Assembly: GCA_963849735.1 (NCBI GenBank)
Contig: CAWKJE010000016.1
Location: 54,086-118,085 of the forward strand
DNA: 64,000 nucleotides
From: an uncultured delta proteobacterium
GTDB lineage: Bacteria > Myxococcota_A > Polyangia > Fen-1088
Direction of reading: 5' to 3'
Part shown: positions 38,784 through 55,554 of the stretch, piece by piece
How positions within the stretch are numbered: position 1 is the stretch's first letter
How the letters are laid out: each line of letters opens with the position of its first letter
Made by a program: the position numbers and the translations under genes
The notes under the pieces: generated by a model
The model's database searches: none
What the model saw: only the letters and a program-made list of their open reading frames with translations
What the model was told of the DNA's origin: nothing

Positions 38784-38787
38784 GGCA

Positions 38788-40047
38788 TCATCCCTCCCCG
38801 ACGAGGCGAGCGAGCAGCCCCGGTTTGACGGCCTCGAGCAGGGCCGAGACATCGCCATCGCGAATAGCGCGCAGGTGCGGCACCAGGTCGAGTAGCTCAC
38901 CCGGCACCTTGCCCGCCAGCACCTGCAGGTCATCGAGTAGGGAATGCTTCAGCTCCGGGTCCCGAGGCGCCTGGTCGAGCAGGCGCGCCAGATCGGAGAT
39001 CGCGTCTTGTCGGGCCCCGAAGTCTGCGGGACGCAGAGCAGGAGAAGTCCCCACCACCACCTTCTCGATCCAGACCTTGCCGCTACCCAGCGCGGCCGCC
39101 TGACTGGTCACCTCGGCGCGCAGCTGATCACGCCCGCCCAGGAAAAGCTCACCGTGTGCGAGGGTCCTGCCGACCAGCTTAACCCGGACGGCCAACGGCC
39201 GGCCGTCCGCCTGCCGCTCGACCAGCTCCGCGAGCTGCCTGCCCACCAGGAACACGACCTCATCCCGGTTGCGGGCCGTGTCGACCGCGACCTCGAGCAT
39301 ATGCCAGCGCACGACGTCGGTGAAAACCCGCTCGATCCCGACGATTTCCCCACCCTCCGCGGTGATGAGCACCGCCCCCCGCGGTCCCGTCTCGCGCACG
39401 TGACGCCCCTGCAGATTGCCGGGGAAGACGATGGGGGGCTGGCGGCTCGGCAGACAATACTCGTGGACGTGCCCTAGCGCCCAGAACTGATACCCGCGAG
39501 CGACCAGGTGTCCCACCGTGCAGGGCGCGTAGCTCCTGTGCGACTCGTATCCCTCGAGGGCGGTGTGGAGCACACCGATGTTCAGCCACCCGGGCACCGG
39601 GTCAGGATAGTGGACGACCAGGTTATCCTCGACCGCGGCCTGCCCGTAACTCTGGCCGTGCAGGGCCACCTGCAGCTCCGGCAGGCGGAAGGTTTCGGGA
39701 CGCTTCTTGCCGAAAACCCGCACGTTGCCCGGCAACAGCAGCCGCCGGGTGACGTCGCTCTGGGCGTCGTGGTTGCCGAAGGCGAGGAAGACGGGGATAC
39801 CTGCCTTCGCCAGCCGTGCCATCTCCTTGACGAAGAAAAGGCCGGTGTTGAAGTCTTTCCATTCCCCGTCGTAGAGATCGCCCGCTATGATCATGAAGGC
39901 CACGCCATCCTCGATGGCACGGCCCACCAGCCCAGAAAAGGCCTCGCGCGTGGCGGAACGGAGCAGATCCGTGGGAGCGTCTCCATAGCCCGCCAGCCCG
40001 GCCAGGGGGCTGTCGAGGTGGATGTCTGCGGTATGGAGGAACTTCAT
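38788..40047 (-). CDS. SbcD/YhaO/Mre11-like calcineurin-type metallophosphoesterase (nuclease subunit)
   Basis: MKFLHTADIHLD...IIAGDLYDG...AFGNHD...LGHVHE are the phosphoesterase motifs I-V. It lies immediately upstream of, and is co-directional with, the AAA ATPase. Confidence 0.75.
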   Translation of the reverse strand: MKFLHTADIHLDSPLAGLAGYGDAPTDLLRSATREAFSGLVGRAIEDGVAFMIIAGDLYDGEWKDFNTGLFFVKEMARLAKAGIPVFLAFGNHDAQSDVTRRLLLPGNVRVFGKKRPETFRLPELQVALHGQSYGQAAVEDNLVVHYPDPVPGWLNIGVLHTALEGYESHRSYAPCTVGHLVARGYQFWALGHVHEYCLPSRQPPIVFPGNLQGRHVRETGPRGAVLITAEGGEIVGIERVFTDVVRWHMLEVAVDTARNRDEVVFLVGRQLAELVERQADGRPLAVRVKLVGRTLAHGELFLGGRDQLRAEVTSQAAALGSGKVWIEKVVVGTSPALRPADFGARQDAISDLARLLDQAPRDPELKHSLLDDLQVLAGKVPGELLDLVPHLRAIRDGDVSALLEAVKPGLLARLVGEG

Positions 40048-40373
40048 GGGGCCTCGGATCAGTTGGCTCACCTTAGCGCCCGGCGCTGACCGCCGTCCAC
40101 ATTCCCACGCGCAGGCCAGCGGGTGAAGGCTGAGCACCACGATCGCAGGACGGCCAGGCTGACGGCGGCAAAATGTGTGCGCTTTGCCCTCGCATCGTCC
40201 TTGCCTATCCCACTGCACATCCGTATAGTACGTGGGTATAGCATACCCGTGGCGGGCGTCGAGGATCTGCGCCGGCAAATCGCGGAATTGGCGGCCAGGT
40301 GGCAGGTTGGACGTGGCGACGACTACGACATTGCCGTGGCCGGGCTGCTCGAACTCGGGTAGACAATGCCGGA

Positions 40374-40955
40374 ATGAAACTGCTTCATTTCGGATGGCTG
40401 GCGCTCGCGGCCTGCGCAACAGGCACAACCGAGGCGACCCCGCCCCGCCTTGCTCCTGCGGTTGCATCGCCGATGGGCATTATCGGCACGGCCGGGCCAT
40501 CCGGCCTGACCGTGGTCGGCGACACCCCTGATCTGCACTTCCGCCTGCTCCTGAGCGGCAATCACGTCGCTATCGGCCATGGCGATGGCAACTTCATCGT
40601 CGACGACATCGAGGCTCAGGTGAGCACGGTGGCGGCGCGCGATATCAGCCCCGCCACCGCCAGCCAGAGCGGAATCGAGCTGCTGCGCACCCATGCGAGG
40701 TGGCAATGCGCACGCATGTCCGAGGCGCTCGGCCACGAGGTGGCGCCGGAAGAGATAGAGATCTTAACATCGGAAAAGATGCCCGCTGCCCTGGTCTGGT
40801 CTGCCGGCGACCTGCTGTACGTGACCGCCGCGTACGACCACAACGTGGTGGCTCTGTCGGTGCGGTCCAAGGCTGGAGTCGACTTGGCCGCCAAGGCCGA
40901 GTATTGGATGGCCTCGCTCTCCGTCTCGCCCTACCCTATCGCATCAGCGCCCTAG
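40374..40955 (+). CDS. Hypothetical lipoprotein
   Basis: MKLLHFGWLALAACATG carries a lipobox. There is no recognisable domain. It sits between the divergent SbcD-like gene and the convergent SNF2 gene. Confidence 0.4.
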   Translation: MKLLHFGWLALAACATGTTEATPPRLAPAVASPMGIIGTAGPSGLTVVGDTPDLHFRLLLSGNHVAIGHGDGNFIVDDIEAQVSTVAARDISPATASQSGIELLRTHARWQCARMSEALGHEVAPEEIEILTSEKMPAALVWSAGDLLYVTAAYDHNVVALSVRSKAGVDLAAKAEYWMASLSVSPYPIASAP

Positions 40956-41020
40956 CGCTCGTCCCCTCTCTCGGAGCTCGGTCGTCGTATTGCACGGGCA
41001 GGAAGACGGTGAAGGTAGAT

Positions 41021-44000
41021 TCATGGACTCTCGGGGCTTTCCTCCTCGACATCGCCTTCTGCCGTGTCCGCGCCGCTGCGACGGATGAGGTCGAGCAGAT
41101 CTTCGCTATCCAGGCGGGCGGCGGCGTCGGCTCCGTCGAGAATGCTGGCGGCGAGCTGACGTTTCTCCTCGTGCAAGGACAGCACGGCCTCCTCGATCGT
41201 GCCACGAGCCACCAGACGGATGACCGTCACGGGGCGCTCTTGACCGATGCGGTGGGCGCGGTCGGTGGCCTGATCTTCGACGGCGGGGTTCCACCAGGGA
41301 TCGAGGTGGATGACGTAGGTGGCGGCGGTGAGATTGAGCCCGGTGCCGCCAGCGCGCAAGGACAGGAGAAACGCATCGGCCTCTCCCGCCTGAAATGCAG
41401 CTACACGCCGGGCGCGCTCCAGTGCCGGCGTTGAGCCGTCGAGGCTAAGAGTGCGCAAGCCAGCCCGGTCGAGGAGCGGTCGGGCGATGTCGAGGAAGCT
41501 GGTAAACTGGCTGAATACCAGGGCACGGTGGCCCTCGTCGCGTAGCTCGACGAGCAAATCGACCAGCGCCGCTAGCTTCGCCGAACCGGCACTGCTGTCC
41601 TTCACCACCAGGCGGGGGTGGCAACACAAGAGCCGCAAGCGGGTTAGCGCAGCGAGAATCTTGATCCGTTGTTGCGCCTCGTCGCCGCCAGTCGCAGCGC
41701 CCGTGGCCAGGCTCTGCAACGCCTCGATGCGCGCGGCTTCGTAAAACCGCCGTTCCAGCGGGCTAAGCTCGATAGTCTGGTTCATCTCGGTGCGCGGCGG
41801 CAGCTCGGGCGCCACCTCGGCCTTGGTCCGGCGCAGGAGGAATGGCCGCACCACCCGGGCCAGGGCGGCTTGGCGAGCGCGGTCGTGGTGGCGCTCGACG
41901 GGCAAAGCAAAGCGCGCTCGGAACTGCTCCCACGAACCGAGCAAGCCCGGGGTCACCAGGCGGAAGATGGCCCATAGCTCGCCCAAGTGATTTTCGATCG
42001 GGGTGCCCGTGAGCGCCACACGGAAGTCGGCCTGCAGATCACGGATGGCCCGGAACCTTTGCGTGAGGGCATTCTTCACCGACTGGGCCTCGTCGACGAT
42101 CAAGGTCGCGAACCTGATGGCGGCCAGGGCTTCGGCGTCGCGCGCGGCGATGGCATAGCTCGTGACCAAGAGATCGCCGTGACCCAGAGCCGCGCACAGG
42201 GCCGCGCGCTCGGGACCGCGGTACACGCGCACCGCGAGCCCGGGCGCGAACTTGGCACTCTCGGCCGCCCAGTTGGCCACCACCGAGGTGGGGGCGATGA
42301 CCAGGGCCGGCCCGAGATCGGAGCGCCGCAGGAGCAGCGCCAAAGCCTGCAGGGTCTTACCGAGTCCCATGTCGTCGGCCAAACAAGCACCGAGGCCCCA
42401 CGTCGCGAGCCGGGCGAGCCAGCGAAAGCCATCCTCTTGGTAGTGGCGCAGGCAGGCCTGCAAGCCCGCCGGCAACACCGCCGCGTCGCCCCGCGCGGCC
42501 TCGATCTTGCCCAGCACGGCACGAAAGGCCGGCACCAGGTCGAGCTGGCGCGGATCCTCCACTACGTCGGCCAACACCGGCGCGGCCAGCAAACCGATCT
42601 CGAGAGCGCCCTGGTTGTCGAACACCACGTCGTCGAGGGCGGCCAGCTTATCGCGCAGATCGTCCTCGATGGCGGCAAAGCGGCGCGGACCCAGCTTCAC
42701 GAAGCGCCGCCCCGCCCGCACCGCGGCCAACAACTCCAACAGCGAAATCTGCATGTCGTCGATCTCTGCCCCACCCTCGGCCCCGAACCAATCGCGCCGG
42801 CGGCTCACCGCGACCTTGAGCGATGTGCGAAAGACCCGATCCACACGGATCTCACCCGCCGGCCACTCGATGGAGCCGAGCTCGGGCAGTCCGCGCAGCT
42901 TGCCCAGCACTTCCAGTGCGCTTCTGTCGTCGCTCACGTCCCAGCACCATGGCCCGCTCGACGTGGCGTCGTCGAGGCCCAACGCCTGCGCCAGGTGAGC
43001 GCCCCGCTCGCGCTCGGCCCCGAGGGGGCGGGGCGAATGCAGGCGTCGCCCATCACGCGCCAGCATGACCTCGGGCGGGCCCTCACCGGGCGCGAAGACC
43101 GGGCCGTCGGCAATGGGGCGCACCACCATCGCTATGCGTAAGCCCGACTCGGGCAGCGGCTCCAACCTACACACGATGGTGGTCGGCGGTTCCACCTGTT
43201 CGCCGCGTACCCCATCGGGCAAGTGCACGTCCAGCGAGTCTTGCATGCGCGGCAGACGGAGCACCAGCTCGTCGACCGCCTCGTTCGGCAGCACCACGGG
43301 AAACTTGGCCATGGCCCCCAAGAGCGCCATAGCATCGGAGCCCAGCAGCGCCAGCACACAAAGGTGGCGCTCCTCGTCCAGCCACACCAGGTGGCGCCCA
43401 TCCTCGACCAAAGTCAGCAGCACCCCTGGATCGACCTCCACCCCGCCCAAGCTGGTACGCAAGCGGAACCCACCCTCCACCTCGTCCAGGGTCAAGGCCA
43501 CCCTCGCCTTGCGTACTGACAACGGGGTGGACCGATCGGCAGCGAACACCCGCGACGAGCCCGCCAAGGCAGCGAGCGCTCGCCAGCCCTGGCGTGGGTT
43601 CAGAGACTGCGAACGCCTGTAGTAGTAGGCGCTTGGCTCTCGGGCATCCATCAACACTTCGAAGACGGCCTGGTCCGCGGGATCGCGACGCACGGCTCCC
43701 TGGTCATCGAGGCTCTCCAGACTCAGGCGCTGGCCTCGCGACCAAGCCCCCCGCTTGCCCAATTTCTGCACGATCGGAAGCACGGATATGCCCTCGGGCT
43801 GGCGCGAGATCTGCCAGATGAGTCGTTGGGATTCCTCGGCCGCCGGAACCGCGACTTGGGCTAGCCGGGAGTCGAGGTGGCCGAGCAAGCGCGACCAGCC
43901 GGGAACTCGCAGTATGGGTGCGAGCAGATCGGCCAGCGCGTCCGCCGGATCGCACAAGGCCGCGCTGATCTCCTCGAGGGCCGTCACCACGTGGACACAG

Positions 44001-45019
44001 GACGAGCGATCGCGACAGCGTTTGCACACGAAGCCGAGCTGGCCGCTGTCCCACGCCGCCAGCCGCACGGTCAAGAAGGGCTGGCCTGCCGAGCTAGTAG
44101 GCACGCCCCCCTCGGAGATGTGCCATTCCCGGTAGCCGAGCTCGGGTGGATCTGCCTGCAGGGTGATCCGGCCGGGTAGGAAAGTCCCCGCCGGGCGCAA
44201 CGGGCATTGGGCAGCCACCTGGTCGCGACGGTCCCGAACCAGCTGCAAGAAGCGCAATAGGTTGGGATCGGAAGGCAAGCGGGCGCGGGCCGTACGTTCG
44301 GCCTGGAGATGCGTCATCGAGGCCAGCACATGGGCCGCCCGGTGCAGGTATGCCTTGGCCGAGGACACCAAGTGCTCAGCCAACTCGGCCCGAAAGAATC
44401 TCGGTGCCGCCACGGTTTTGGCCGTCACCAGCACGGCATCGCGCACGGTCCGAGGCAACTGTTGCGGGGGAAAGCCATAAAAATTGTCAGCCGACGTCGA
44501 TGGGTACGGATCCCCCAAACGCTCGCTCACGCCGTGGCGCTCGCACCACGCCTCGAGGGCCTTGATCTCCGTAGGCGGAGCCAGGATGCTGGGCGAGGCA
44601 GTTGTCTCCGCTGCCAGGCGGCCGCGCTCGGGGACAGGGATGGCGATTTTCGCGAGACCGGTCGCGGGCTCATCGTCGTCAAAGTCGTCGAAGTCGTCGA
44701 GGTCATCGAAGTCATCTGGGTCATTGTGGTCATCGGGCCTGCCGGCGGGGGGCGAGTCGCTGAGCCAGTTCCACAAGTGGTCCCGCACGTTAGCGGCGAC
44801 CTCGGAAGAAAAGCGATTCGCAACCAAGACCTCGGCCTCCTCACGGCACAGGTCCCGGACCTGCCGACACCGCAGTATGGATGAAACCACCTTCACCACG
44901 CGCCTGACCGCCGAGGGCAGCCCGACAAGGAATTCCGCAACAGGAGCGGAGAGCAGAAATTCCTGGCTATCGACATGGAGAGCTGCAGGAATGGCGGCGA
45001 ACGATGTGGGTGCGGGCAT
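41021..45019 (-). CDS. SNF2-family helicase with N-terminal SWIM zinc finger
   Basis: SWIM CxC-Xn-CxH (FVCKRCRDRSSCVHVV). SNF2_N (LADDMGLGKTLQALALL...DEAQSVKN). Helicase_C (LLSLRAGGTGLNLTAATYVIHLDPWWNPAVEDQATDRAHRIGQ). There is an acidic DDF-repeat tract near the N-terminus. Confidence 0.85.
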   Translation of the reverse strand: MPAPTSFAAIPAALHVDSQEFLLSAPVAEFLVGLPSAVRRVVKVVSSILRCRQVRDLCREEAEVLVANRFSSEVAANVRDHLWNWLSDSPPAGRPDDHNDPDDFDDLDDFDDFDDDEPATGLAKIAIPVPERGRLAAETTASPSILAPPTEIKALEAWCERHGVSERLGDPYPSTSADNFYGFPPQQLPRTVRDAVLVTAKTVAAPRFFRAELAEHLVSSAKAYLHRAAHVLASMTHLQAERTARARLPSDPNLLRFLQLVRDRRDQVAAQCPLRPAGTFLPGRITLQADPPELGYREWHISEGGVPTSSAGQPFLTVRLAAWDSGQLGFVCKRCRDRSSCVHVVTALEEISAALCDPADALADLLAPILRVPGWSRLLGHLDSRLAQVAVPAAEESQRLIWQISRQPEGISVLPIVQKLGKRGAWSRGQRLSLESLDDQGAVRRDPADQAVFEVLMDAREPSAYYYRRSQSLNPRQGWRALAALAGSSRVFAADRSTPLSVRKARVALTLDEVEGGFRLRTSLGGVEVDPGVLLTLVEDGRHLVWLDEERHLCVLALLGSDAMALLGAMAKFPVVLPNEAVDELVLRLPRMQDSLDVHLPDGVRGEQVEPPTTIVCRLEPLPESGLRIAMVVRPIADGPVFAPGEGPPEVMLARDGRRLHSPRPLGAERERGAHLAQALGLDDATSSGPWCWDVSDDRSALEVLGKLRGLPELGSIEWPAGEIRVDRVFRTSLKVAVSRRRDWFGAEGGAEIDDMQISLLELLAAVRAGRRFVKLGPRRFAAIEDDLRDKLAALDDVVFDNQGALEIGLLAAPVLADVVEDPRQLDLVPAFRAVLGKIEAARGDAAVLPAGLQACLRHYQEDGFRWLARLATWGLGACLADDMGLGKTLQALALLLRRSDLGPALVIAPTSVVANWAAESAKFAPGLAVRVYRGPERAALCAALGHGDLLVTSYAIAARDAEALAAIRFATLIVDEAQSVKNALTQRFRAIRDLQADFRVALTGTPIENHLGELWAIFRLVTPGLLGSWEQFRARFALPVERHHDRARQAALARVVRPFLLRRTKAEVAPELPPRTEMNQTIELSPLERRFYEAARIEALQSLATGAATGGDEAQQRIKILAALTRLRLLCCHPRLVVKDSSAGSAKLAALVDLLVELRDEGHRALVFSQFTSFLDIARPLLDRAGLRTLSLDGSTPALERARRVAAFQAGEADAFLLSLRAGGTGLNLTAATYVIHLDPWWNPAVEDQATDRAHRIGQERPVTVIRLVARGTIEEAVLSLHEEKRQLAASILDGADAAARLDSEDLLDLIRRSGADTAEGDVEEESPESP

Positions 45020-45282
45020 GGACGCGAAATCCTACGTCCATGGCTAGCACAGGCCACGATGACTAGAATGTAATTCACCTCATCATGTGTATCTGGTGAC
45101 ATCTTCGATCGCGGCCATGGTCGGGAAGTGCGGCACAGCGTCAGGCGCGTCGAAGCCGGTATGAACCGCCACTGCCAGGATGGCCGTCGCGGGATCCCTC
45201 GAGCAGTACGCTACCGAATTGCCGACCGGGTTGCCTCGGCCGCCGGCGATCTCGGCACCCTTGCCGCTATCCCCAATCCGCA

Positions 45283-45678
45283 TCAGCGGTTCGCGAGAGT
45301 GCGAAATCCTTTCCCGCGCAGCAACCGTTGGTCACTGGTCACCAGGGTCAGGTCGTAAGCGGCCGCGCTAGCCGCCAAGAAGCGATCTGCCGGATCGTCG
45401 TGCTCGGCTTGGATGCTCCGGCTATAGAGCGCCACCTCGAAGGTTAGCCGAGCATCGTGCATGGGCACCTTGGCCAGCGCGGCCTCGACCCAATCCCGGG
45501 GGCTGCCCCGCACCGACACCCGCCCCCGCTCGGCCAGCAGCAGGAACTCCCACACGCTGATCGGCGACAGCCACAGCTCCGTCTCGCGAGCAAGCAGCAA
45601 CTGCGCCACACGCCGGGAAAGGTGCTCGGGGGCGAGGTGGCTCCAGATCCAGATGTGCGTGTCGAGGAGCAGCTTCAC
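45283..45678 (-). CDS. vapC: PIN-domain ribonuclease toxin
   Basis: GTG start with a GGGAGG SD. PIN acidic tetrad positions are VKLLLDTHIW (D), WEF (E), DPADRFL (D) and LVTSDQRL (D). It overlaps the upstream antitoxin by 4 nt. Confidence 0.75.
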   Translation of the reverse strand: MKLLLDTHIWIWSHLAPEHLSRRVAQLLLARETELWLSPISVWEFLLLAERGRVSVRGSPRDWVEAALAKVPMHDARLTFEVALYSRSIQAEHDDPADRFLAASAAAYDLTLVTSDQRLLRGKGFRTLANR

Positions 45679-46082: not shown

Positions 46083-47237
46083 TCACCCCGCCAGCCGGTT
46101 GCTGTACACGCGCGGCACGCGGGTGTTGATGCTGGTGAGCACCTCGTGCGGGATGGTGTTGGCCCAGGCAGCCATCTCTTCGATGGTGACGCCCGGGCCA
46201 TCGCCTCCTAGTAGCACTGCCTCGTCGCCGTTCCAGGCACTGTCCCAGCCGATGGCCACCATTACCTGGTCCATGCAAATGGTCCCGACCACGGGATAGC
46301 GGCGGCCGCGGATGACGACTTGGGCTTTGCCCGACATGGAGCGCAGGTAGCCGTCGCCGTAGCCCACGGGCAAGGTCACTACCCGGGTCTCGGCGTCGGC
46401 CTGCCATCGGGCGCCGTAGCTCACACTGGCGCCGGGCTGGATCACCTTGAAGTAGACGACCTGGGAGGACCAGCGCAAGGCCGCCCGGACGGGCAGGGTG
46501 CGCGCGATGTGGGGGGAGGGATAGGCGCCGTAGAGCAAGATGCCGGGCCGCACCATGTCCAGCCGTGCCTCGGGTAGCTGCAGCACCGCCCCGGAGTTGG
46601 AGATGTGGCGGGTCGGACAGGGCAGCGAGTGGACGCGGTAGAAATCGACCGTCTCCAGGAAGCGCTCGAGTTGCAGGTGCGCGAAGGAGAGGTCCTCCGC
46701 GTCGGCAGTGGCGAAGTGGGAAAAGATACCCTCCACCTTGGTATGACGACAGCGTAGCGACGCCTCCAACAGTTTGGCCGCGTTGTGCCAGTGCACGCCG
46801 ATGCGCTCCATCCCCGTGTCGACCTTCAAATGCACGCGCGCGGTCCGCCCCAGCGCCGCCGCGCAACTCTCGATGGCGCCGAGCTTGTCGAGCGACGAGG
46901 CGGTAAGTATCAGATCGTGGGCGAGGAAGAGGGGAATCTGCTCACCCACGATGCCGCCCATCACGAGCACCGGCGCCCGCACTCCCGCGCTGCGCAAGCG
47001 GAGGCCCTCTTCGAGGTAAGCAACGCCGAGGCAGGGTGCGCCCAAGCGGTCGAAATGGCGGCCAACCTCTACCAGCCCGTGGCCGTAGGCATTGGCCTTG
47101 AGCACCACGAGCACGGGCACGCCGGTCAGCTGGCGCAAGAGCTGGTAGTTGGCCGTGAGCTGGCCCAGGTCAACGTGCAACGCAGTTGGTCGCGGCCCCT
47201 GCCCCAGCGCGATCGTCGGCTCGTTGATCTCCGGCAT
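46083..47237 (-). CDS. alr: Alanine racemase
   Basis: PLP-binding N-terminus VLKANAYGHGL and a full-length Alr fold. The start is at 47237. Confidence 0.85.
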   Translation of the reverse strand: MPEINEPTIALGQGPRPTALHVDLGQLTANYQLLRQLTGVPVLVVLKANAYGHGLVEVGRHFDRLGAPCLGVAYLEEGLRLRSAGVRAPVLVMGGIVGEQIPLFLAHDLILTASSLDKLGAIESCAAALGRTARVHLKVDTGMERIGVHWHNAAKLLEASLRCRHTKVEGIFSHFATADAEDLSFAHLQLERFLETVDFYRVHSLPCPTRHISNSGAVLQLPEARLDMVRPGILLYGAYPSPHIARTLPVRAALRWSSQVVYFKVIQPGASVSYGARWQADAETRVVTLPVGYGDGYLRSMSGKAQVVIRGRRYPVVGTICMDQVMVAIGWDSAWNGDEAVLLGGDGPGVTIEEMAAWANTIPHEVLTSINTRVPRVYSNRLAG

Positions 47238-47699
47238 GACTGCCCCTGTGTACCACGAGAGCCCGATGGGCGAATTAGGCTTGACGGCCTCTTCGTGCAG
47301 AGTCGCATCGTCGAAGCCTCGACCCGGGCTTCCCCGCGTCCTCCTCTAAGCCCCCATGCGGCGGAGCTGTGCCGCATGGCGCCATGGCTTGCGGCTTGAG
47401 AGCGAGACCAGCAAGTGTCACCATGCCCCTGTCCACGATCGTTCGTAGAGTTGTGCATGGCAAACCTCGCGGCAGGCATCTACGCCATAATGATCATTGC
47501 CCCTACCTCACCGGCCGCCGACTCGGCTTTCCTGGCGGCCGAGCATGGATTTGGGTTACGGTATCCACGGGATCTTCCCAACAGTAGTGGCCGATGCTAT
47601 CGCGGCGGTGGTGGTGCTCGAGACCCACGATCCAGCTGCGGTCACGAGCGTGACCGGGCGGACAGCAGCACGACTGCCGAGGCGTGGTCCTAATAGGCT

Positions 47700-50315
47700 A
47701 TGCTACCTCTGCGCGGAATTCTCAGGCTTTACGACCCGCTCGACGGCGAGCTCGTCCTGATCGCACGCTCCGAATGGTTCTTCTGCCGAGCCGAGAGCGG
47801 ATACCACGAGGTAGATTCCGGAATAGCGATCTGGCGCTTGCGCCAGCTCTCGGGCTACCGGCTGGAGCGCGCGCACACCTTCCTGCAAGAGGCGCGCCTT
47901 CCCGACTTCGATGTCGGGCGGATGTGCCACGTTGGGCTGCACGACTATCGGCCGATCAACATTATCATCGCGGCCATCCGCGACCACCGTGTGGTAGTCG
48001 TGCAAAGAGGGGCAGCGCCCCCCCCCGCCAAGAGCGCCACGGCCGAGCTGCGCGGCCTGGTGGCCCAGATCGACCAGCGCGGCACACTGCTTTTTCAGGG
48101 ACGGCAGTACAAGTTGGTGCTGGCTGGTAACCTCGATCGACTTTCCAGCCGCGACCGATATGAGGTGGTCTCGCAATCCGCGGCCCGCGGCGTGCTAGAT
48201 GGCCTGGCCAAAGAATCACCCGCTTCCGCGCAGGCCCTCGGCCAGGCGAGTGAGAAGATCGGCAAGGACTGGCGTCCCCCGTTTTCGCAGCCCGAAGGCC
48301 TCGTGCTGTTACGACGGATTCCCGTCCCAGCGGCGGCATCCAGGGGCGATGGGCCGGCCATCACGCCCTCGCAGATGAGAGAGATGCTGGAGAAGGGAGA
48401 TCCGGCTGAGCCGACAATTCGCCTGGTCAATGTTGAATCCCCGGTTTTCGTCCCCGGGGTGGAGTCGAACAGAATTTCATATGCCATCGATGGACCGGTG
48501 GCCAAGGTCGCCTCGGTGAAGATGCTCGTGCGCTCGGTGCCGAGCAAGGGAGATCCGGCGGTGGTTCAGACATTGACCATCGATGGGCCCTACGCGGCAT
48601 CGGGTGATCTAGACTGGGACGGCAAGGCGCTTACCCCAGGTGGGTTCATCACCCTCCGGGGAGCGCCGTACGAGATCGCCTTCGAGCTGACTTCGAAGTC
48701 GGGCAAGGTATCCACCAGCAATACGGGCAAGATAAGCTTGGAAGTGCAGGAGACAAAGATCTTGGTCGACGACACGGGACCGCTGTCGGTGGACGACGAC
48801 TGGAAGGCGACGGTGGCTGCCTTCATCGCGGAGCTCGAGAAGAGTGGCATGCCGGGCGACTGCGAAGGCAAAGTCGTCATCGATAGCCCACTCTTCAAGA
48901 CCAACGAAGGTGAGATGTACACCGACATTTCCTTCCTGGCCTACGAAGCGAGCGCTGACACCGGGCCGGCGCTGCCGTTGCTGGCTGCGATCAAGCTCAA
49001 GTCCAAGGACGGTTCCGGCAAACGGTTCGCGCCGGCGCTGGTCGGGACGCGCCTCTTGTGGGACTTCCAGCTCGAGACATCGAGTGAGCTCGATGCAGCG
49101 CTGGGAACCCGGGGCGTAGCGCCCCCAGCTAAGACCTTCATGAAGAAGGTCGGCGCGTACGAAGAAGCGGCGACGCAGCCCAAGGGGGCGTCCGCGCACC
49201 TGAAGGTGGGCGGATTGCGGGCCAAGTCAGAGGACCGCGCACGGGCCGGACGACAGTGGCAGGCGGGCGGCGATTGGACTATGACGGCGCCCGACCACCG
49301 GGATTGGGCGGCATTCACGGGCTGCGGCGCCAGCGCATCCGACGCGGTCGCCGATTCCGCGGTCTACTTCAGCGCCGGACGGATGGCCGGCGACACGTTC
49401 AAGGTGCGCGCGGTCGTCGACGTGGACGAGAGATTCGACGTGGTCGACGACGCTGCCCCTTACAGCGCGCCGCCGGCGAGAGTATCGAACGTCATCAAGA
49501 TCGTCGTCTGGCGGCGAGTGGCGATTGTCGGAAACTGGATCGTGGGCACGACCACTACGCCGGTCACCATCCCGCCCCTGACCGCCGAGTACAAACGCGC
49601 GGCCATGTTGATCGAGCCGGCACCCGGGGTGGTCCCGACCGATATCGAGGCGACTTGGATCAAGGCCTATCAGGTGACGGTCGACGCCTACGTGAACGAC
49701 GAAGAGGCCTTCGTGGACAAAGCGTTGGCGCGTGACTCGCAGGGATGGCCCGTCAGATACCTCGATTTCATGGAGTACTGGGAGAAGGACAAACCCGATG
49801 CCGGCTTCTTCGGCGAGCTTTGGGAGCGCATCAAGACATTCTTCGGTGGCGCCGACGAGCAAAGCTATAAGGAGAAGTGCGAGAAGCATTGGTTGAAAGT
49901 AGTGAAGCAAGTAACGCGTGGCATGGCGATCCCGGACAACGGCATTACTGCTATCAAGTTCGGTCGTGTAGGTCCGCACAACCAAAATCCTAGCCCAAGC
50001 AGCTATACGGCTGGAGTCGCTCCGGCGATTGCTGGAGTGACGACTCGGACGAAAGCCGTGTTCTTTCAGTTCACGCTTGGGGCTGACACCAAGACCTTCA
50101 TCCATGAGGTAGGCCACACGCTGTTCCTCGCGCACGCTCCTGGCCATTTCCAGCCACCTAAGCAACCCGACGGGTACGTGCCCGAGGCGCACGACAAGGA
50201 TCAAGTCTGTCTCATGTCGTACCATCCCAATAAGATGCATCTCTGCGGCCTATGCCTGCTCAAGCTCGGTGGCCGCGACTACCGGAAAATCAAGAATGAC
50301 GGAACGCTCCTGTAG
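47700..50315 (+). CDS. Hypothetical 871-aa cytoplasmic protein with C-terminal HExxHxxxxxH (metzincin-like spacing) motif
   Basis: No signal peptide. C-terminal FIHEVGHTLFLAHAPGH followed by a Cys-containing tail (CLMSYHPNKMHLCGLC). I recognise no other domain. GC is lower than the flanks. Confidence 0.5.
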   Translation: MLPLRGILRLYDPLDGELVLIARSEWFFCRAESGYHEVDSGIAIWRLRQLSGYRLERAHTFLQEARLPDFDVGRMCHVGLHDYRPINIIIAAIRDHRVVVVQRGAAPPPAKSATAELRGLVAQIDQRGTLLFQGRQYKLVLAGNLDRLSSRDRYEVVSQSAARGVLDGLAKESPASAQALGQASEKIGKDWRPPFSQPEGLVLLRRIPVPAAASRGDGPAITPSQMREMLEKGDPAEPTIRLVNVESPVFVPGVESNRISYAIDGPVAKVASVKMLVRSVPSKGDPAVVQTLTIDGPYAASGDLDWDGKALTPGGFITLRGAPYEIAFELTSKSGKVSTSNTGKISLEVQETKILVDDTGPLSVDDDWKATVAAFIAELEKSGMPGDCEGKVVIDSPLFKTNEGEMYTDISFLAYEASADTGPALPLLAAIKLKSKDGSGKRFAPALVGTRLLWDFQLETSSELDAALGTRGVAPPAKTFMKKVGAYEEAATQPKGASAHLKVGGLRAKSEDRARAGRQWQAGGDWTMTAPDHRDWAAFTGCGASASDAVADSAVYFSAGRMAGDTFKVRAVVDVDERFDVVDDAAPYSAPPARVSNVIKIVVWRRVAIVGNWIVGTTTTPVTIPPLTAEYKRAAMLIEPAPGVVPTDIEATWIKAYQVTVDAYVNDEEAFVDKALARDSQGWPVRYLDFMEYWEKDKPDAGFFGELWERIKTFFGGADEQSYKEKCEKHWLKVVKQVTRGMAIPDNGITAIKFGRVGPHNQNPSPSSYTAGVAPAIAGVTTRTKAVFFQFTLGADTKTFIHEVGHTLFLAHAPGHFQPPKQPDGYVPEAHDKDQVCLMSYHPNKMHLCGLCLLKLGGRDYRKIKNDGTLL

Positions 50316-50316
50316 A

Positions 50317-51525
50317 ATGAGTAGCTGTAGCGCGACTCGCTGCTCTGGACATCGTTCGGCCATGGTGGCACTTGCGGCATTTGTATTAGCACAGGGGTGT
50401 CATGGTTGTGCGAGCGGGAGCAATGTATTTTCCGCGTCGGCGGTGAACAGTGAACAATCGAGGGTCATCATGCGACGTTTTGGGCTTGCCATCCCTGGAG
50501 TAGCGACTTCTTACGCAATAGATGATGAGGCGATCTACGTGCTCGGCACCTCTGGCAGCCGCAATCAGCTCGTAACAACGGAGTACTACGAGTCCGGCGT
50601 GGAACCCCACGAGCTGCGCTCTTTCAAACCGTCTTTCTGGGGCGTGGACGTGCCCGACGGGGCGGAGCTCTTTGCCCCAACCGGCGGAATTACGCCGGAA
50701 AACGCACGCCAGTACTGGGTAGGGTGGCTGCTGGGCCAGCGGGTTTCCATGCTCGCGCTGATGCAAAAGCACCCGGTCGAAGCGGATCTGGCCGCCGACG
50801 AGACCGCCCTCTTTCCCCCGGTCATGGACAAGGCCGGGGTGGCCGCGCTCTATTCCTGGCGGCCGGTGGCTCAAGGGGTTGCGCTCTGGCGGCGCCTGTT
50901 CACAGGCGCGGTCAAGACCAAACCTTCAGTCACCACCGAGGCACTGACCGAGATACCCGGGCGGCCGGTGGTGTCCGTGGTCGGGGCGATTCCGGGGGAG
51001 CCGACACAGCACGCCATCATCGGATGGGCGGAAGACACGGCCGCCGGCGCCGTGCTGGGCATCGCGGTCGTGCGTCCCGACCAAATACGCGTCATGCGCT
51101 CCGACCCTATCCCAGGGTTCATCCCATTCGTCCACCAGCGCCCCGGGATCTGGGCGTCGGCGCCGCCGACCGCCGAACGCTATGAGTTGAAGTTGGCGCT
51201 GGAGTCCCGCGAAGAGCCCCACCGCTACCAAACCGCGCAGCTCTCCGTCGCTGCGCAGTCAGGCGAGCGGATGACCTCGCTCCAGGCCGACCTACCCACC
51301 GGGCAACTGCATGCGGCGGCCTACGACTACGCGAAGGACCACGTCGGGGCCTTTGCCAACCAGGAATTTCTGACCAAGGACGGCCGGCTGTGGAGCGGTC
51401 CGCCATTCAGGTTGACGAAGCAGGGAGTCTCGCTCGATGATCCGCTCACCATCCTGATGACCTACACACAAGCCTACTGGGGCGAGCGGTCCGCCGACGG
51501 TGGGCTGTCGTTTCATATACTCTGA
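50317..51525 (+). CDS. Hypothetical protein (403 aa from ATG 50317), partner of the HExxH protein
   Basis: It starts 2 nt after the upstream stop (TAGAATG). The Cys-rich N-terminus (MSSCSATRCSGH...VLAQGCHGC) is possibly a weak lipobox. I recognise no domain. GC is low. Confidence 0.4.
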   Translation: MSSCSATRCSGHRSAMVALAAFVLAQGCHGCASGSNVFSASAVNSEQSRVIMRRFGLAIPGVATSYAIDDEAIYVLGTSGSRNQLVTTEYYESGVEPHELRSFKPSFWGVDVPDGAELFAPTGGITPENARQYWVGWLLGQRVSMLALMQKHPVEADLAADETALFPPVMDKAGVAALYSWRPVAQGVALWRRLFTGAVKTKPSVTTEALTEIPGRPVVSVVGAIPGEPTQHAIIGWAEDTAAGAVLGIAVVRPDQIRVMRSDPIPGFIPFVHQRPGIWASAPPTAERYELKLALESREEPHRYQTAQLSVAAQSGERMTSLQADLPTGQLHAAAYDYAKDHVGAFANQEFLTKDGRLWSGPPFRLTKQGVSLDDPLTILMTYTQAYWGERSADGGLSFHIL

Positions 51526-51547
51526 GCTCGATATCGGCACGAACGCG

Positions 51548-51875
51548 TACCGACCACGGGGATAACGGCCCAGAATGACCGGAGCACCGCACGCCGGCGT
51601 TGCGCAGGCGAAGCCCCTCTTCGAAGTAGTCTACGCCGAGGCGCAGCGCGCCACTCGGTAGAAATGGCGCCCACCTCCACCAGCCTGTGGCCCTAGGCAT
51701 TGGCCCTCAACGCCACGCGCACCGGCACCCCGGTCAGCTGACGCACAAGGTAGTACTCGGCCGCAAGCCGCTCCGAGTCATCGAGCAACGCGACAGGTCA
51801 CAGCCCCTGCCCGAGCACGATCGCCGACTCGTTGATCTCCGCCATTACCGTTTGTGCACCACGAGGTTGCCCCGA
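51548..51875 (-). pseudogene. Decayed duplicate of the alr 5' end (first ~95 codons plus about 30 bp of upstream sequence)
   Basis: It aligns base-for-base (with indels and an in-frame stop) to 46945-47270. The conserved regions include the GVDYFEEGLRLRNAGVR vs GVAYLEEGLRLRSAGVR region and the start-codon context gatctccgccatTACC vs gatctccggcatGACT. Confidence 0.65.
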
Positions 51876-52044
51876 TAGAGCCGCTAGGGCACCTCCTAAG
51901 ACCGCTCACATCAGGGTGTTCTCCGGGATGGTCCATTTGTGCGGCGAGTTTCCTGCTGCGCGCGCGATGCAAAAAGGGTTAATGTAATCCCGCTGTCCGT
52001 TCCCCCTCACGAGGAACAGCTACCACCCTGCAAGGAGATATTCG

Positions 52045-54030
52045 ATGAAGATGAAGTCCGCTGTGCTTGCGATGGCGATGGCATCCGGCGCAATAGCGTC
52101 AGGAATCATGCCCGGCGCGTGCGGCTCCGGGACCACGGGCCAAGGAGGCAACGGGGGAGCAGGGGGATCGTCCCAATCCGGTGGCTCTTCCGGTAGCGGT
52201 GGGAGCAAGAGCAGCGGCGGAAGCGCCAACAGCGGCGGGAACAGCGCCAGCGGCGGGGCCACCAGCCCGTCGGGTGGCGGAGCGGGAGGGAGCGCCGGCA
52301 GCAGCGGAACGGGAGCAACCTGCACCGCCACTGCCGACGTCAAACCCTGCGGCGGCAGTGTGACGGGAACCTGGACCGTCACGTCGGGGTGCCTGCAGAT
52401 ATCGGGTCCGGTAAACGCCCAGGCAGTCTTCGGTCTTACTTGCCCGACGGTGCAAGTGACCGGAAGCCTTCAGGTAACGGGAACCTGGACCGCCAACTCC
52501 GACACCACTTTCACGGACAACACAACTACGACCGGCAGCGAGCAGATCACGCTGCCAGCCGGCTGCCTGCTCCTCTCCGGAACGACTACCACATGCGCAA
52601 AGATAGTTCAGGAAATGAGAAGCACATACGATACGGTATCCTGCACGGACGCCACGGGCGGAGGTTGCACTTGTTCGGCAACCGTCAATCAGCAGGGTGA
52701 GATGGGTCTGGTAGTGGGCTCCGCAGCCGCGCAGACGAGCGGCAATTACACAACGTCCAGCAACACCATCGCGAATTCCGGGGACTCGAACACCTACTCG
52801 TACTGCGTCGCGAACAACACTCTGACCGTGACCCCGGTTGATCCGTTTTCGGCGACCGGCACCATCGTTCTGCAGCAAGGCACCGCTGGCACTAAAGGAA
52901 GCGGAGGAGCAGCAGGAGGAGGAAATGGTGGCAGCACTGGAGCGGCCGGGACGAGTGCCACCCATGCTGGTGGCGCGGGCGGCACGTCAGGCGCTGGCGG
53001 CGTAGCCGCCAGCGGCGGTTCCTCCGGTGGTGGCGGGGTCGCCCAGAGAAGCAGCGGGCCATGCGACATCTACGCGGCCGCCAAAACCCCCTGTGCCGGA
53101 GCCTACAGCATGGTCCGCGCGCTCTCCAGCACATACACTGGCCCTCTGTTTCAGGTGCGGAGTGGAAGCTCGACAACGAACACGGGCACGGGCGGCAGCA
53201 CCCAAGATATCGCAATGACCACGGACGGCTACGCGGATACTTCCAGCGTGGATTCGTTCTGCTCTGGCACGACGTGCACCGTCTCGAAGCTCTATGATCA
53301 GTCCGGCAACGCCAATGATCTCGTGACCGGGACCGGAGGTCCCGCGGGCAACGGAACCCGCTCGGGGGACACTGACTACGAGTCGAGCATTACGACCAAA
53401 GGCCAGATAACGGCGGGAGGCCACAAAGTCTACTCGCTCTACATGAATGAGTACGAGGGCTATCGGACCCCGCTCAAGGCCGTGGGCAAAGGCATGCCCA
53501 CCGGCAATGCCGCGGAGGGCATCTACGAGCTCGCCGACGGCACTCACTTCGGCGGCGCGTGTTGCTGGGACTTCGGCGATGTTTCTCCCGATCCCAACAC
53601 GTATGTCACCATGAACACTATCTTCTTCGGCACCGGCTACTGGGGTTCCGGCGCGGGTAGCGGGCCATGGTTCATGGGGGACTTCGAGGGCGGTGTCTGG
53701 GCCGGAGGCTCGGGAGCGTCGAGTGCGAACAATCCCCAAAGCCCGTCCATGGCCGTGCCTTTTGCCCTCGGCATCCTCCACACGCCGGTTGGGCAATATG
53801 AGCTCAGAATGGCCGATGTGCAGAAAGCCTCTGATCTGACCACTGCATATAATGGCACTTCGCCTAAAGGGTGGGGTAATGCAGGAGGAATCGGCCTGGG
53901 TATCGGCGGTGACAACAGCAACAACTCGTACGGAACCTTCTACGAAGGCGCCATCACCAACGGCGCCCCGTCAGAAGCAACCGACCTCCTGGTGATGAAG
54001 AACATCCAAGCGGTGGGTTACTCGAAGTAA
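52045..54030 (+). CDS. GH54-like alpha-L-arabinofuranosidase lipoprotein, paralog of 13304..15286 (same N-terminal 8-Cys domain, no CBM42)
   Basis: Lipoprotein signal MKMKSAVLAMAMASGAIASGIMPGAC. A G/S linker and a ~190-aa Cys domain homologous to that of the other paralog. GH54 catalytic domain: GPCDIYAAAKTPCAGAYSMVRAL...CCWDFGDVS...GSGPWFMGDFE...TFYEGAITNGAPSEATD. Confidence 0.75.
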   Translation: MKMKSAVLAMAMASGAIASGIMPGACGSGTTGQGGNGGAGGSSQSGGSSGSGGSKSSGGSANSGGNSASGGATSPSGGGAGGSAGSSGTGATCTATADVKPCGGSVTGTWTVTSGCLQISGPVNAQAVFGLTCPTVQVTGSLQVTGTWTANSDTTFTDNTTTTGSEQITLPAGCLLLSGTTTTCAKIVQEMRSTYDTVSCTDATGGGCTCSATVNQQGEMGLVVGSAAAQTSGNYTTSSNTIANSGDSNTYSYCVANNTLTVTPVDPFSATGTIVLQQGTAGTKGSGGAAGGGNGGSTGAAGTSATHAGGAGGTSGAGGVAASGGSSGGGGVAQRSSGPCDIYAAAKTPCAGAYSMVRALSSTYTGPLFQVRSGSSTTNTGTGGSTQDIAMTTDGYADTSSVDSFCSGTTCTVSKLYDQSGNANDLVTGTGGPAGNGTRSGDTDYESSITTKGQITAGGHKVYSLYMNEYEGYRTPLKAVGKGMPTGNAAEGIYELADGTHFGGACCWDFGDVSPDPNTYVTMNTIFFGTGYWGSGAGSGPWFMGDFEGGVWAGGSGASSANNPQSPSMAVPFALGILHTPVGQYELRMADVQKASDLTTAYNGTSPKGWGNAGGIGLGIGGDNSNNSYGTFYEGAITNGAPSEATDLLVMKNIQAVGYSK

Positions 54031-54315: not shown

Positions 54316-55554
54316 ATGACCATGCTCGGCTTGTCGCAATGTGAGATGGCGATGCAGGACGGTTCACGTGCCCCACGTTCACAGCGGCTTGCGCTGCGCA
54401 GCATTGCGCCTTTGCTCGGATTCTGCCTGGCCTTGGGTTGCGTCGACCTCACCCCTCCGGCAGCGTTGGTGAAGTACCGCAATGGCGCCGGAGGCGGAGG
54501 GTCGGGAGTAGCCGGGGACAGCGCGGCGGGAGGGGCGGGAGCGGGTGCTGGAGCCGGGGCGGGTGCTGGAGCGGGGATGGGGACGGGGGCGGGCGAAGCC
54601 GGTGGAGGGCCGGCCGGGGGTGGGGGAGCTGGCGGGTTGGGCCCATCGTCTGGGCTGGGAGGCGGTTCGCCGGATACGGACGGTGCGGCGGCGGGAGGGG
54701 CGATTGACGGCAACAGCCAGCCCGGCGGCGGGGGCAATCCCGGTGGGGGCGCAACGAAGCAGGATGGAGCAGCGGGGGGCGCGGCAGCGGGGGGCGCGAC
54801 ACTTGGGGCGGGCGGGGCTCCGGGCACGGGCGGCCAGTCTGTGGCGAGCGGTGGGACTAGGGCCATGGGCGGCAGCTCGGGAGCTGCGGGAGCCACGGGC
54901 AAGGGCGGCACAACGGGAAAGCTCGATGGCTCGGCGGGCGCCGGCGGAGCGGTGGCGTTCGATTGCGCTCAGGCGATCAAACCCACGGGCGGCCTCGTCA
55001 CCGACTTCACCGATTGGAATGCGACGACCAAGACTTGGGGGGGCACGAGCGCGCTGACCGGCAATGTCTGGCAATACGGCAACTCGGGCACCAGCGTGGC
55101 CATCGCCCAGGTCGAGGGAACCCCTCCCGGCTTGCACATGGGCGGGACCATTCCCAACGGCGCATACTACGGCGGGGTCGGGATGACCTTCTATTCCTGC
55201 GTTACAGCGGCCTCATTCAGCACCATCTCGTTCAAGGTCTACGGCAGCGCAGCAGGCTGCTCGATCGCGCTCCAGCTTGACACCTACGACGAGTGGCCGG
55301 TCGAGAGCACGCCGCCGGGAGGGTGCAAGGGGGACGGGGGCACCAGCTGTTACCAGTTCCCCGCCAAATCCGGTGTGATAGACTTTTCGTCCGCGGTGGC
55401 GGCGCCGGGCACGACGGTGTCGGTGACCCTCTCGTCCCTGAGCAACTGGTCGGCGAGTGTGGCGGGTCAGATCGTCGGCTTGCAGTGGCAGTTCACCCCC
55501 AACGGTGGGGCATGCACGCCCGACGTGACCTTCACCGCTATCGAGTTCCAGTAA
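54316..55554 (+). CDS. Putative carbohydrate-binding lipoprotein (G/A-rich linker plus C-terminal beta-sandwich CBM-like domain)
   Basis: Probable lipoprotein signal (...IAPLLGFCLALGCVD). A long G/A-rich low-complexity region. The C-terminal ~190 aa has a CBM-like aromatic pattern (WNATTKTWGG...NVWQYGNSG...GLQWQF). The start codon is uncertain (54316-54352). Confidence 0.45.
   Translation: MTMLGLSQCEMAMQDGSRAPRSQRLALRSIAPLLGFCLALGCVDLTPPAALVKYRNGAGGGGSGVAGDSAAGGAGAGAGAGAGAGAGMGTGAGEAGGGPAGGGGAGGLGPSSGLGGGSPDTDGAAAGGAIDGNSQPGGGGNPGGGATKQDGAAGGAAAGGATLGAGGAPGTGGQSVASGGTRAMGGSSGAAGATGKGGTTGKLDGSAGAGGAVAFDCAQAIKPTGGLVTDFTDWNATTKTWGGTSALTGNVWQYGNSGTSVAIAQVEGTPPGLHMGGTIPNGAYYGGVGMTFYSCVTAASFSTISFKVYGSAAGCSIALQLDTYDEWPVESTPPGGCKGDGGTSCYQFPAKSGVIDFSSAVAAPGTTVSVTLSSLSNWSASVAGQIVGLQWQFTPNGGACTPDVTFTAIEFQ

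Follow-up and report, generated by a model that had tools for sequence, protein, structure and literature searches.

A duplicated alr 5' end around a candidate effector-immunity gene pair in an uncultured Polyangia genome: a possible old insertion scar

Introduction

Campbell-type insertion by a single crossover, with a non-replicating circle that carries a gene fragment, is routine in Myxococcus genetics. When the fragment holds a promoter and a 5' end, one intact gene and one 3'-truncated stump are left. A natural locus that may be of this kind is described here. It lies in a stretch of 64,000 nucleotides (nt) of contig CAWKJE010000016.1, from an uncultured delta proteobacterium of the Polyangia; this whole stretch is called the window. 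In the window, the 5' end of alr, the gene for alanine racemase, is present twice in the same orientation, once in the intact gene (copy A) and once as a decayed fragment (copy B), with two genes between the copies. The locus is tentatively read as the scar of an old duplicative insertion, for which a Campbell-type single crossover would be the most economical route; this is put at a little under an even chance.

Three described systems come close to parts of this locus. The dusA-specific islands insert into the 5' end of a housekeeping gene, provide it with a replacement 5' end, and strand the original one at the other end of the insert (Farrugia et al., 2015, PMC4482086). They have a dedicated tyrosine integrase and short, semi-conserved attachment (att) repeats, and they span tens of kb (PMC4482086). 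The effector-immunity modules of Vibrio cholerae's type VI secretion system (T6SS) are exchangeable cassettes whose replacement leaves gene remnants and arrays of orphan immunity genes (Kirchberger et al., 2017, PMC5361080). In the Tpe/Tpi pairs, which are the VgrG2b C-terminal domain with PA0261 and Tpe1 with Tpi1 (Wood et al., 2019, PMC6899460), an HExxH zinc-peptidase toxin is delivered with the VgrG spike, and the immunity protein is periplasmic and in some lineages a lipoprotein (PMC6899460).

The direct repeat of the alr 5' end

The two arms of the repeat, A at 46969-47259 and B at 51578-51865, were joined by blastn in a single alignment of 292 nt with 77.4% identity (E = 8e-58). Padded arm segments aligned with MAFFT had a mean column identity of 81%, and the value of about 80% that the original prediction had judged by eye is in agreement with both figures. 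A repeat search recovered the arm pair as families D1, D2, and D10, with a spacing of 4608-4610 nt and both arms on the minus strand, and no alr-like piece other than B was found by blastn in the 64 kb. The repeat is genuine, with a similarity far above what chance would give. The features of the locus are as follows.

46083..47237, minus strand: alr (copy A), the intact gene for an alanine racemase that is 384 amino acids (aa) long, with Pfam Ala_racemase_N and Ala_racemase_C.
46969..47259, minus strand: repeat arm A, alr +1 to about +270 with at least 22 nt upstream and weaker similarity to about 47285 (blastn, fine alignment, repeat families D1/D2/D10).
47238..47699, no strand: non-coding spacer of 462 bp between the divergent alr A and effector-like gene, without codon periodicity.
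47700..50315, plus strand: gene for a protein of 871 aa, a candidate T6SS cargo effector with an Ig-like N-terminal part and a metzincin-like zinc peptidase C-terminal part.
50269..51525, plus strand: gene for a lipoprotein of about 390-418 aa, a candidate immunity protein from its pairing with the 871-aa homologue and its lipoprotein-type signal.
49500..51870, no strand: strain-variable block, which covers the C-terminal domain of the effector, the immunity gene, and copy B, from the window against conspecific contig L001.
51526..51577, no strand: junction of 52 nt from the stop codon of the immunity gene to the truncated end of copy B, set by the end of the homology with locus L062 and the start of the alr homology.
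51578..51865, minus strand: repeat arm B, the decayed promoter-proximal region and first ~270 nt of alr, a pseudogene fragment by its stops and frameshifts, with weaker similarity to about 51890.
52045..54030, plus strand: GH54-type alpha-L-arabinofuranosidase gene, divergent from copy B (Pfam ArabFuran-catal, E = 6.6e-81).

Copy A had been described as intact, and both Pfam domains are indeed present at full length, PF01168 (Ala_racemase_N) over positions 1-220 of 220 (E = 7e-66) and PF00842 (Ala_racemase_C) over positions 1-127 of 127 (E = 2.4e-42). Its guanine-plus-cytosine (GC) content at third codon positions (GC3) is 0.87. The description of B as a decayed second copy of the start of alr, in the same orientation and with an internal stop and indels, was also borne out. 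It has in-frame stops and three 1-nt indels, and it reads ALRANA*GH where A has the intact pyridoxal-phosphate-lysine motif VLKANAYGHG. The extent given for B needs to be corrected. Upstream sequence does belong to the repeat, as the similarity of A and B is clear to about -22 from the ATG and plausible to about -47 in a fine alignment, but it ceases near +270 of alr and not at +290 or +330, and the inner end of B is at about 51578 and not 51548. Copy B keeps the alr promoter region, abuts a different upstream region, that of GH54, and is truncated 52 nt from the last stop codon of the enclosed genes.

As the window is metagenome-assembled sequence, chance similarity or an assembly artefact could be suspected. 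The E value, the similarity of B to alr genes of other species, and the 15 allelic differences in B between two assemblies all speak against this. An identical layout that includes B was found in four independent assemblies from different studies (two from ENA, one NCBI metagenome-assembled genome (MAG), and one from Logan), and their agreement refutes an artefact of assembly. The chance or artefact explanation has next to no probability left.

A conserved (G)GTACA(C/A) or TACAAT-like element is present at 47246-47262 and at equivalent sites upstream of alr in the distant relatives L008-L011, L013, L020, and L022. In these relatives as in A and B, its end lies about 9-12 nt ahead of the alr ATG. 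It may be a -10 box, and because it sits so near to the start codon, the alr mRNA may be leaderless.

Descent and age of copy B

A tree was built from the first 273 nt of A and B and the orthologous stretch of nine further alr genes, taken from species genomes. A and B are sisters against these nine genes (bootstrap 1.0), and the nearest of the nine is that of Myxococcales MAG L008, at 83% aa identity. By three-point estimates, the branch of A has a length of 0.069 and that of B, about twice as long, a length of 0.141. Differences between A and B were polarised with five outgroups. The 33 changes derived in B fall on codon positions 1, 2, and 3 as 14:10:9, and the 10 derived in A as 1:2:7. Functional alr divergence over the same stretch, A against L008, is 8:8:42, and the pattern of B differs from it (chi-square p = 1.4e-4). 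Since the changes in B are even over the codon positions, while those in A and in functional alr are biased to the third, B has evolved free of coding constraint for practically the whole time since the two separated, and A has remained under purifying selection. When the identity of A to eight related alr genes was followed in sliding windows, no break was seen near nt 270-330, where the repeat boundary lies. Copy A is therefore not a mosaic, and its 5' and 3' parts do not differ in ancestry.

Because A and B are sisters against all sampled alr genes, the duplication arose within the lineage or from a near-identical donor. The divergence between them of about 21% is a measure of age, equal to about 0.14 neutral substitutions per site. 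Both circulating alleles carry B, and they differ by 4.5% in it, so B is older than their split. The original prediction had offered either a homeologous donor or an old event for the divergence. The donor is disfavoured by the sister relation in the tree and by the even codon-position pattern of B, and an old event followed by neutral decay is retained. A phylogeny of both 5' copies, which had been suggested along with it, has together with the codon positions separated a constrained A from its decaying sister B. A role for B as a functional small open reading frame (ORF) or as a promoter element was also considered and was rejected, as B evolves like neutral DNA both against A and between strains.

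Copy B could instead be what remains of a second alr, made by a tandem or segmental duplication, with later arrival of the gene pair or a deletion leaving only ~270 nt of the copy next to GH54. The sister relation of A and B points to a duplication within the lineage, as this would require, and B retains the promoter region as a copy of the whole gene would. Tandem duplications are also common in general. At least two events are needed, however, with endpoints that coincide with the boundaries of the enclosed genes, and because the similarity reaches no further upstream than about -47, the unit that was duplicated would have brought almost no upstream DNA with it. The changes in B have no third-position bias, so any functional period must have been short; B was never a long-lived second racemase and was functional briefly if at all. 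A remnant of a second alr is for these reasons considered unlikely.

A possible route of insertion

The topology expected of a Campbell-type insertion was found. A repeat in the same orientation flanks the insert, one arm lies in an intact gene, and the other is truncated and has its own upstream flank. In the ancestor of this Polyangia species, alr and GH54 would have been divergent neighbours, an adjacency that is presumed. A circular DNA, likewise presumed, would have carried about -47 to +270 of a near-identical alr together with the two genes. A single homologous crossover between this circle and the chromosomal alr would have inserted the 4.3-kb segment, which consists of the 462-bp spacer, the effector-like gene, and the lipoprotein gene, and would have duplicated the alr promoter and the first ~270 nt. 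The copy joined to the rest of alr (A) would have stayed functional, and alr would never have been inactivated. The other copy (B) would have been left beside GH54 as a truncated, promoter-bearing stump and would then have decayed neutrally. Over the 273 nt compared, the arms may have been near-identical at the time of the event, as they are sisters and the excess divergence of B is that of neutral decay. The Campbell-type integration that was originally proposed is upheld to the extent that it reproduces the topology exactly in one step, but rival routes give the same end state. A Campbell origin fits the topology and is indistinguishable from other duplicative routes. Besides the repeat and the history of its arms, points in its favour are the non-mosaic A, the occurrence of the gene pair as a module elsewhere, the sharp right-hand limit of the cassette homology, the effector-immunity look of the cargo, and the lack of machinery for other routes.

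The hallmarks of mobile elements were searched for, and their absence had been claimed correctly. No tRNA genes, Rfam families, or convincing terminal inverted repeats were found. There is no integrase between the arms, where only the two cargo genes lie, and no six-frame piece of the 462-bp spacer has a Pfam match or resembles an integrase remnant. The spacer is also without similarity to any fetched locus outside this species. A scan for promoters and terminators gave nothing beyond chance; in 46900-52100 the single match to the promoter consensus is at 51412-51441, and none is in the spacer. Little can be read from the lack of an integrase once about 0.14 neutral substitutions per site have accumulated. 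A site-specific island of the dusA type could have given alr a new 5' end and later lost its integrase and most of its length (PMC4482086), and the event is old enough for such gene loss. No integrase or remnant of one is found between or beside the repeats, however, and the repeat consists of ~290 nt of once near-identical sequence and not of a short att core. The 5' part of A shares its ancestry with the 3' part, and no other member of the cassette family has such flanks. It is very unlikely that an island of this type was the source.

Base composition does not help to delimit an insertion. The window has a mean GC content of 65.7%, and the standard deviation (SD) of 400-nt windows is 3.4%. 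The flanks had been given as about 70% GC and were found to be about 66%. The bracketed DNA is at 62.9%, so it is lower as predicted, but the difference is weak. The dip is limited to 49.5-50.6 kb (57.6%), inside the strain-variable part, and the GH54 gene outside the bracket has a GC content of 63.0% and a GC3 of 0.72, below both cargo genes (0.77 and 0.74). Because the dip is this local and GH54 is as low, composition cannot set the limits of the insert. The local dip can be explained by the block of allelic exchange, with the pattern of a polymorphic toxin and immunity locus, that covers 49.5-50.6 kb. Composition as a mark of foreign origin was rejected, as the difference is below one SD of 400-nt windows and GH54 is equally low.

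Several results weigh against a Campbell-type insertion at alr. Composition fails to mark the bracketed DNA as foreign. A search for the cargo genes on plasmids or other replicons had been suggested, and the 871-aa protein (p871) had no match in PLSDB, INPHARED, or IMG/VR; no circular or plasmid form was found in these, which is weak evidence. An empty site was not found among 185,579 species genomes and the JGI metagenomes, where the nearest alr genes, at 83-84% aa identity and with no shared neighbour on either side, are too distant to show one. The nearest GH54 (66% aa) lies in a sugar and hemicellulose utilisation cluster without alr. None of five other loci of the cassette has direct gene-fragment repeats at its flanks, and for this reason the alr bracket is taken as a one-off and not as a trait of the module. 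Finally, only 33 changes in B were polarised, and a brief functional phase of B could cover up to about one third of its substitutions.

The enclosed gene pair

The two cargo ORFs had been reported to be without recognisable homologs. Both have relatives, and both have normal third-position GC periodicity. A word-indexed search found 42 homologues of p871, mostly in Polyangia MAGs. Its N-terminal ~590 aa include Ig-like beta-sandwiches, and a fold search with the full-length protein returned only these; a model of the C-terminal domain alone was needed for the rest. The remaining C-terminal part, ~280 aa (49467-50315), looks like a zinc peptidase domain of the metzincin type, and the AlphaFold models are confident over most of it. 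It contains HEVGHTLFLAH, in which three His and the Glu have the correct HExxHxxGxxH spacing and the Gly position is Phe. In 22 homologues, H802, E803, H806, H812, H831, M839, and two Cys are invariant. The match to the serralysin zinc site is weak (E = 0.011). The domain has no Pfam family and no sequence match in the Protein Data Bank (PDB) at E <= 1. An exhaustive HMMER scan of 1.84 billion cluster representatives found 200 relatives. The domain is usually at the C-terminus, in proteins of 270-2000 aa, and some relatives are fused to the cell-wall-binding modules OmpA or PG_binding_1.

The second gene has an uncertain start, with candidates at 50296, 50317, and 50362. In public records it is called at 351-354 aa, with a start at about 50470. 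The in-frame upstream extension has a hydrophobic stretch followed by Cys in all nine of the nine loci, mostly as [AL][QH]GC (VLAQGC, for example), and this appears to be a lipoprotein-type signal. As this conserved signal lies upstream of the public start, the gene is systematically under-called. The protein has no Pfam match. In every locus examined, a homologue of it with 41-43% identity (tblastn) follows the homologue of the 871-aa protein.

The pair is conserved in loci L026, L029, L055, L056, L057, L058, L059, and L062 and in the P0016 contig, with differing neighbourhoods, so that apart from the window it is present in at least eight genomic contexts in Polyangia. It is therefore modular and relocatable. 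At the other pair loci examined, no alr or alr fragment was found. In L026, the pair lies between cyaY and groES/EL. L029, L056, and L059 share a "home" synteny with proteins of 205 aa, 617 aa, and 280 aa, to which a Kelch protein is added in L029 and L059 and ATP-binding cassette (ABC) and GATase genes in L029 and L056. In L057, the pair is immediately beside vgrG, with tssJ, K, L, M and tagF; in the P0016 contig it is beside vgrG and DUF6484; and in L055 a DUF2169 gene lies about 5 kb from it. Five other pair loci have no linkage to vgrG, PAAR, adaptor, or T6SS core genes. The closest relative of the cassette is L062, at 72.8% nt identity. Its homology ends at the stop codon of the second gene (51527), 52 nt before B, and the sequence that follows its immunity gene is not alr.

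These observations suggest an envelope-acting metallopeptidase effector that a T6SS delivers in some hosts at least, with a periplasm-facing lipoprotein as its immunity protein, and this is considered somewhat more probable than otherwise. It is indicated by vgrG adjacent to the pair in two loci, by the T6SS core genes and DUF2169 nearby, by the invariant HExxHxxxxxH and Met, by the lipoprotein signal, and by the variability between strains. We infer a toxin and immunity function for the pair on these sequence features. Two findings count on the other side: a Foldseek search of the C-terminal domain against the PDB gave nothing significant, and T6SS genes were not found in the 64-kb window.

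Other genes near the pair were noted in some loci. At L062 3210-3506, on the minus strand and past the immunity gene, there is an inverted and truncated N-terminal fragment of another p871-like gene, with 52% aa identity to window residues ~117-185. The alr case is therefore not the only one with a gene fragment beside such a cassette. In L055 (10575-12570), two small ORFs downstream of the immunity gene each follow repeated intergenic segments of 67 nt and 88 nt that are 78-80% identical, and a 43-nt tandem array comes after them; this may be an orphan-gene array. The 205-aa protein of the "home" synteny (L059 4941-5558, L029 13026-13634, and L056 7569-7913) follows the pair in three genomes. 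A relative of it with 34% identity is in the window at 10507-10932, in ORF 10507-11304, 37 kb from the pair.

Variation between strains

Against one conspecific contig, L001, the window differs by 0.05-0.2% in the flanks and over the first 1800 nt of the effector gene, and the N-terminal 600 aa of the effector are encoded with 3 differences in 1800 nt. Divergence begins sharply at about 49500 and ends with the last difference at 51868; in this block it is 4-60%. The C-terminal domain of the effector has a dS (synonymous divergence) of 0.37 and a dN (nonsynonymous divergence) of 0.069. In the lipoprotein, 78 of the first 93 residues differ while length and lipobox are kept, and the rest of the gene has a dS of 0.075. 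The stretch 50316-50545 is essentially unalignable, yet it has 231 nt in both. Copy B differs at 15 of 333 nt, and the 2.1 kb beyond 51868 contain 1 difference.

Such a pattern, in which the N-terminus is constant while the toxin end and the immunity gene vary, is typical of polymorphic toxin loci that are exchanged by recombination (compare PMC5361080). The block at 49500-51870 looks like allelic swapping of a toxin-immunity module. Its right end at the outer edge of B (~51870) may be coincidental. It might also be that the alr stump is still a homology anchor for later swaps of the cassette, and this is suggested because the strain-variable block ends at the outer edge of the stump.

The block bears on a further route, homology-facilitated illegitimate recombination. 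A close relative that already had the pair just upstream of alr would have been the source of linear DNA. Homology in or downstream of alr would have served as its anchor, and an illegitimate join would have been made at nt ~270 of alr in the recipient, so that A came from the donor and B is the original 5' end of the recipient. The final topology would be identical. This route has been proposed for the displacement of T6SS effector-immunity modules in Vibrio cholerae (PMC5361080), and at this locus the C-terminal domain, the immunity gene, and B act as one recombination block between strains, with its right end at ~51870. The donor, however, must already have had the pair 47 nt upstream of alr, which merely moves the question back, and A has no mosaic boundary of donor and recipient against its relatives. 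The process is also reportedly orders of magnitude rarer than ordinary homologous recombination (PMC5361080). This route is regarded as quite unlikely, and insertion by a single crossover is kept as the preferred reading.

Surroundings of the locus

The leftmost 35 kb of the window are a region for arabinan and hemicellulose utilisation. Its genes include GH43, GH8, GH44, an alpha-galactosidase, an esterase, a sugar ABC transporter, araA, araD, a ribulokinase, LamB, a mutarotase, and SSF. The sugar region is followed in order by an SbcCD-like pair, a 1332-aa SNF2 helicase, a Phd/PIN toxin-antitoxin pair, a 66-aa RES fragment, alr, the cassette, B, and GH54, whose ATG is 199 bp from the ATG of copy B. 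The function of GH54 would suit the sugar cluster on the left, and for this reason the whole stretch of 35.3-51.9 kb (SbcCD-like pair, SNF2, toxin-antitoxin, alr, and cassette) may perhaps be one secondary island inside the arabinan-utilisation region.

The SbcCD-like pair (AAA_27 and Metallophos) and the 1332-aa SNF2 helicase occupy 35319-45019, between the sugar cluster and alr. In L029, an SNF2 gene, an Eco57I-type methylase, and a Peptidase_S24 protein adjoin the local copy of the pair. The presence of such genes in both places hints that the pair tends toward regions like defence islands. Directly after the Phd/PIN pair, at 45083-45283 on the minus strand, a 66-aa ORF has a RES-domain match and resembles a RES toxin gene that has been truncated; the ORF is missing from the gene calls of NCBI MAG contig L002. 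A second strain-variable spot was seen at 54700-54900, with 22 differences in 200 nt, inside a very GC-rich part (76%) of ORF 54316-55554. This ORF has no Pfam or NCBIfam match.

Significance

The locus may offer a natural example in which duplication of a gene fragment let foreign DNA enter the start of the cell-wall gene alr without inactivating it, and analysis by codon position provides a means to date and polarise an otherwise silent scar. The scar is old, single, decayed, and of a known kind. Its mechanistic interest is modest, and it does not overturn current understanding. The enclosed pair is the more useful lead. It belongs to an uncharacterised and rare family that in some Polyangia has links to vgrG and that shows polymorphism among strains found together. 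The T6SS toxins of myxobacteria are poorly known, and the pair is a candidate for a new envelope-targeting effector-immunity family among them.

As a speculation with a very small chance of being right, orphan effector-immunity cassettes of Polyangia could spread without a recombinase, as small circles with a captured promoter and 5' end of a housekeeping gene that enter by a single crossover and keep the essential gene intact. If true, circle-borne cassettes would be a self-repairing and integrase-free route of island insertion, and the alr stump would be its footprint.

Comparison with known systems

As in Campbell-type integration, a duplicated fragment flanks the insert, and an intact gene and a 3'-truncated stump are present. 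Unlike the laboratory case, this would be a natural and old event with arms that are now ~78% identical, and no vector, replicon, or circular form was found. The likeness to the dusA islands is that alr is intact and a second 5' end is stranded across the insert. In contrast to those islands, there is no integrase here, the repeat is 290 nt, and the insert is 4.3 kb with two genes.

The modules of Vibrio cholerae resemble the cassette in that a constant N-terminal part is kept while a variable C-terminal part and the immunity gene recombine between strains. The remnants differ. In Vibrio cholerae they are 3' ends of effectors or immunity genes inside T6SS clusters, whereas the remnant here is that of a housekeeping gene with no relation to the pair, which is itself an orphan with no T6SS gene in the window. 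The inferred logic of the pair, an HExxH-type domain with an exported lipoprotein as partner, is that of Tpe/Tpi. There is no detectable sequence relationship to Tpe/Tpi (no Pfam or PDB sequence match), and the domain is on a free 871-aa protein and is not fused to VgrG, while its relatives are fused to OmpA or PG_binding_1. By analogy, the pair would be functionally akin to Tpe/Tpi, but it is not a member of that family.

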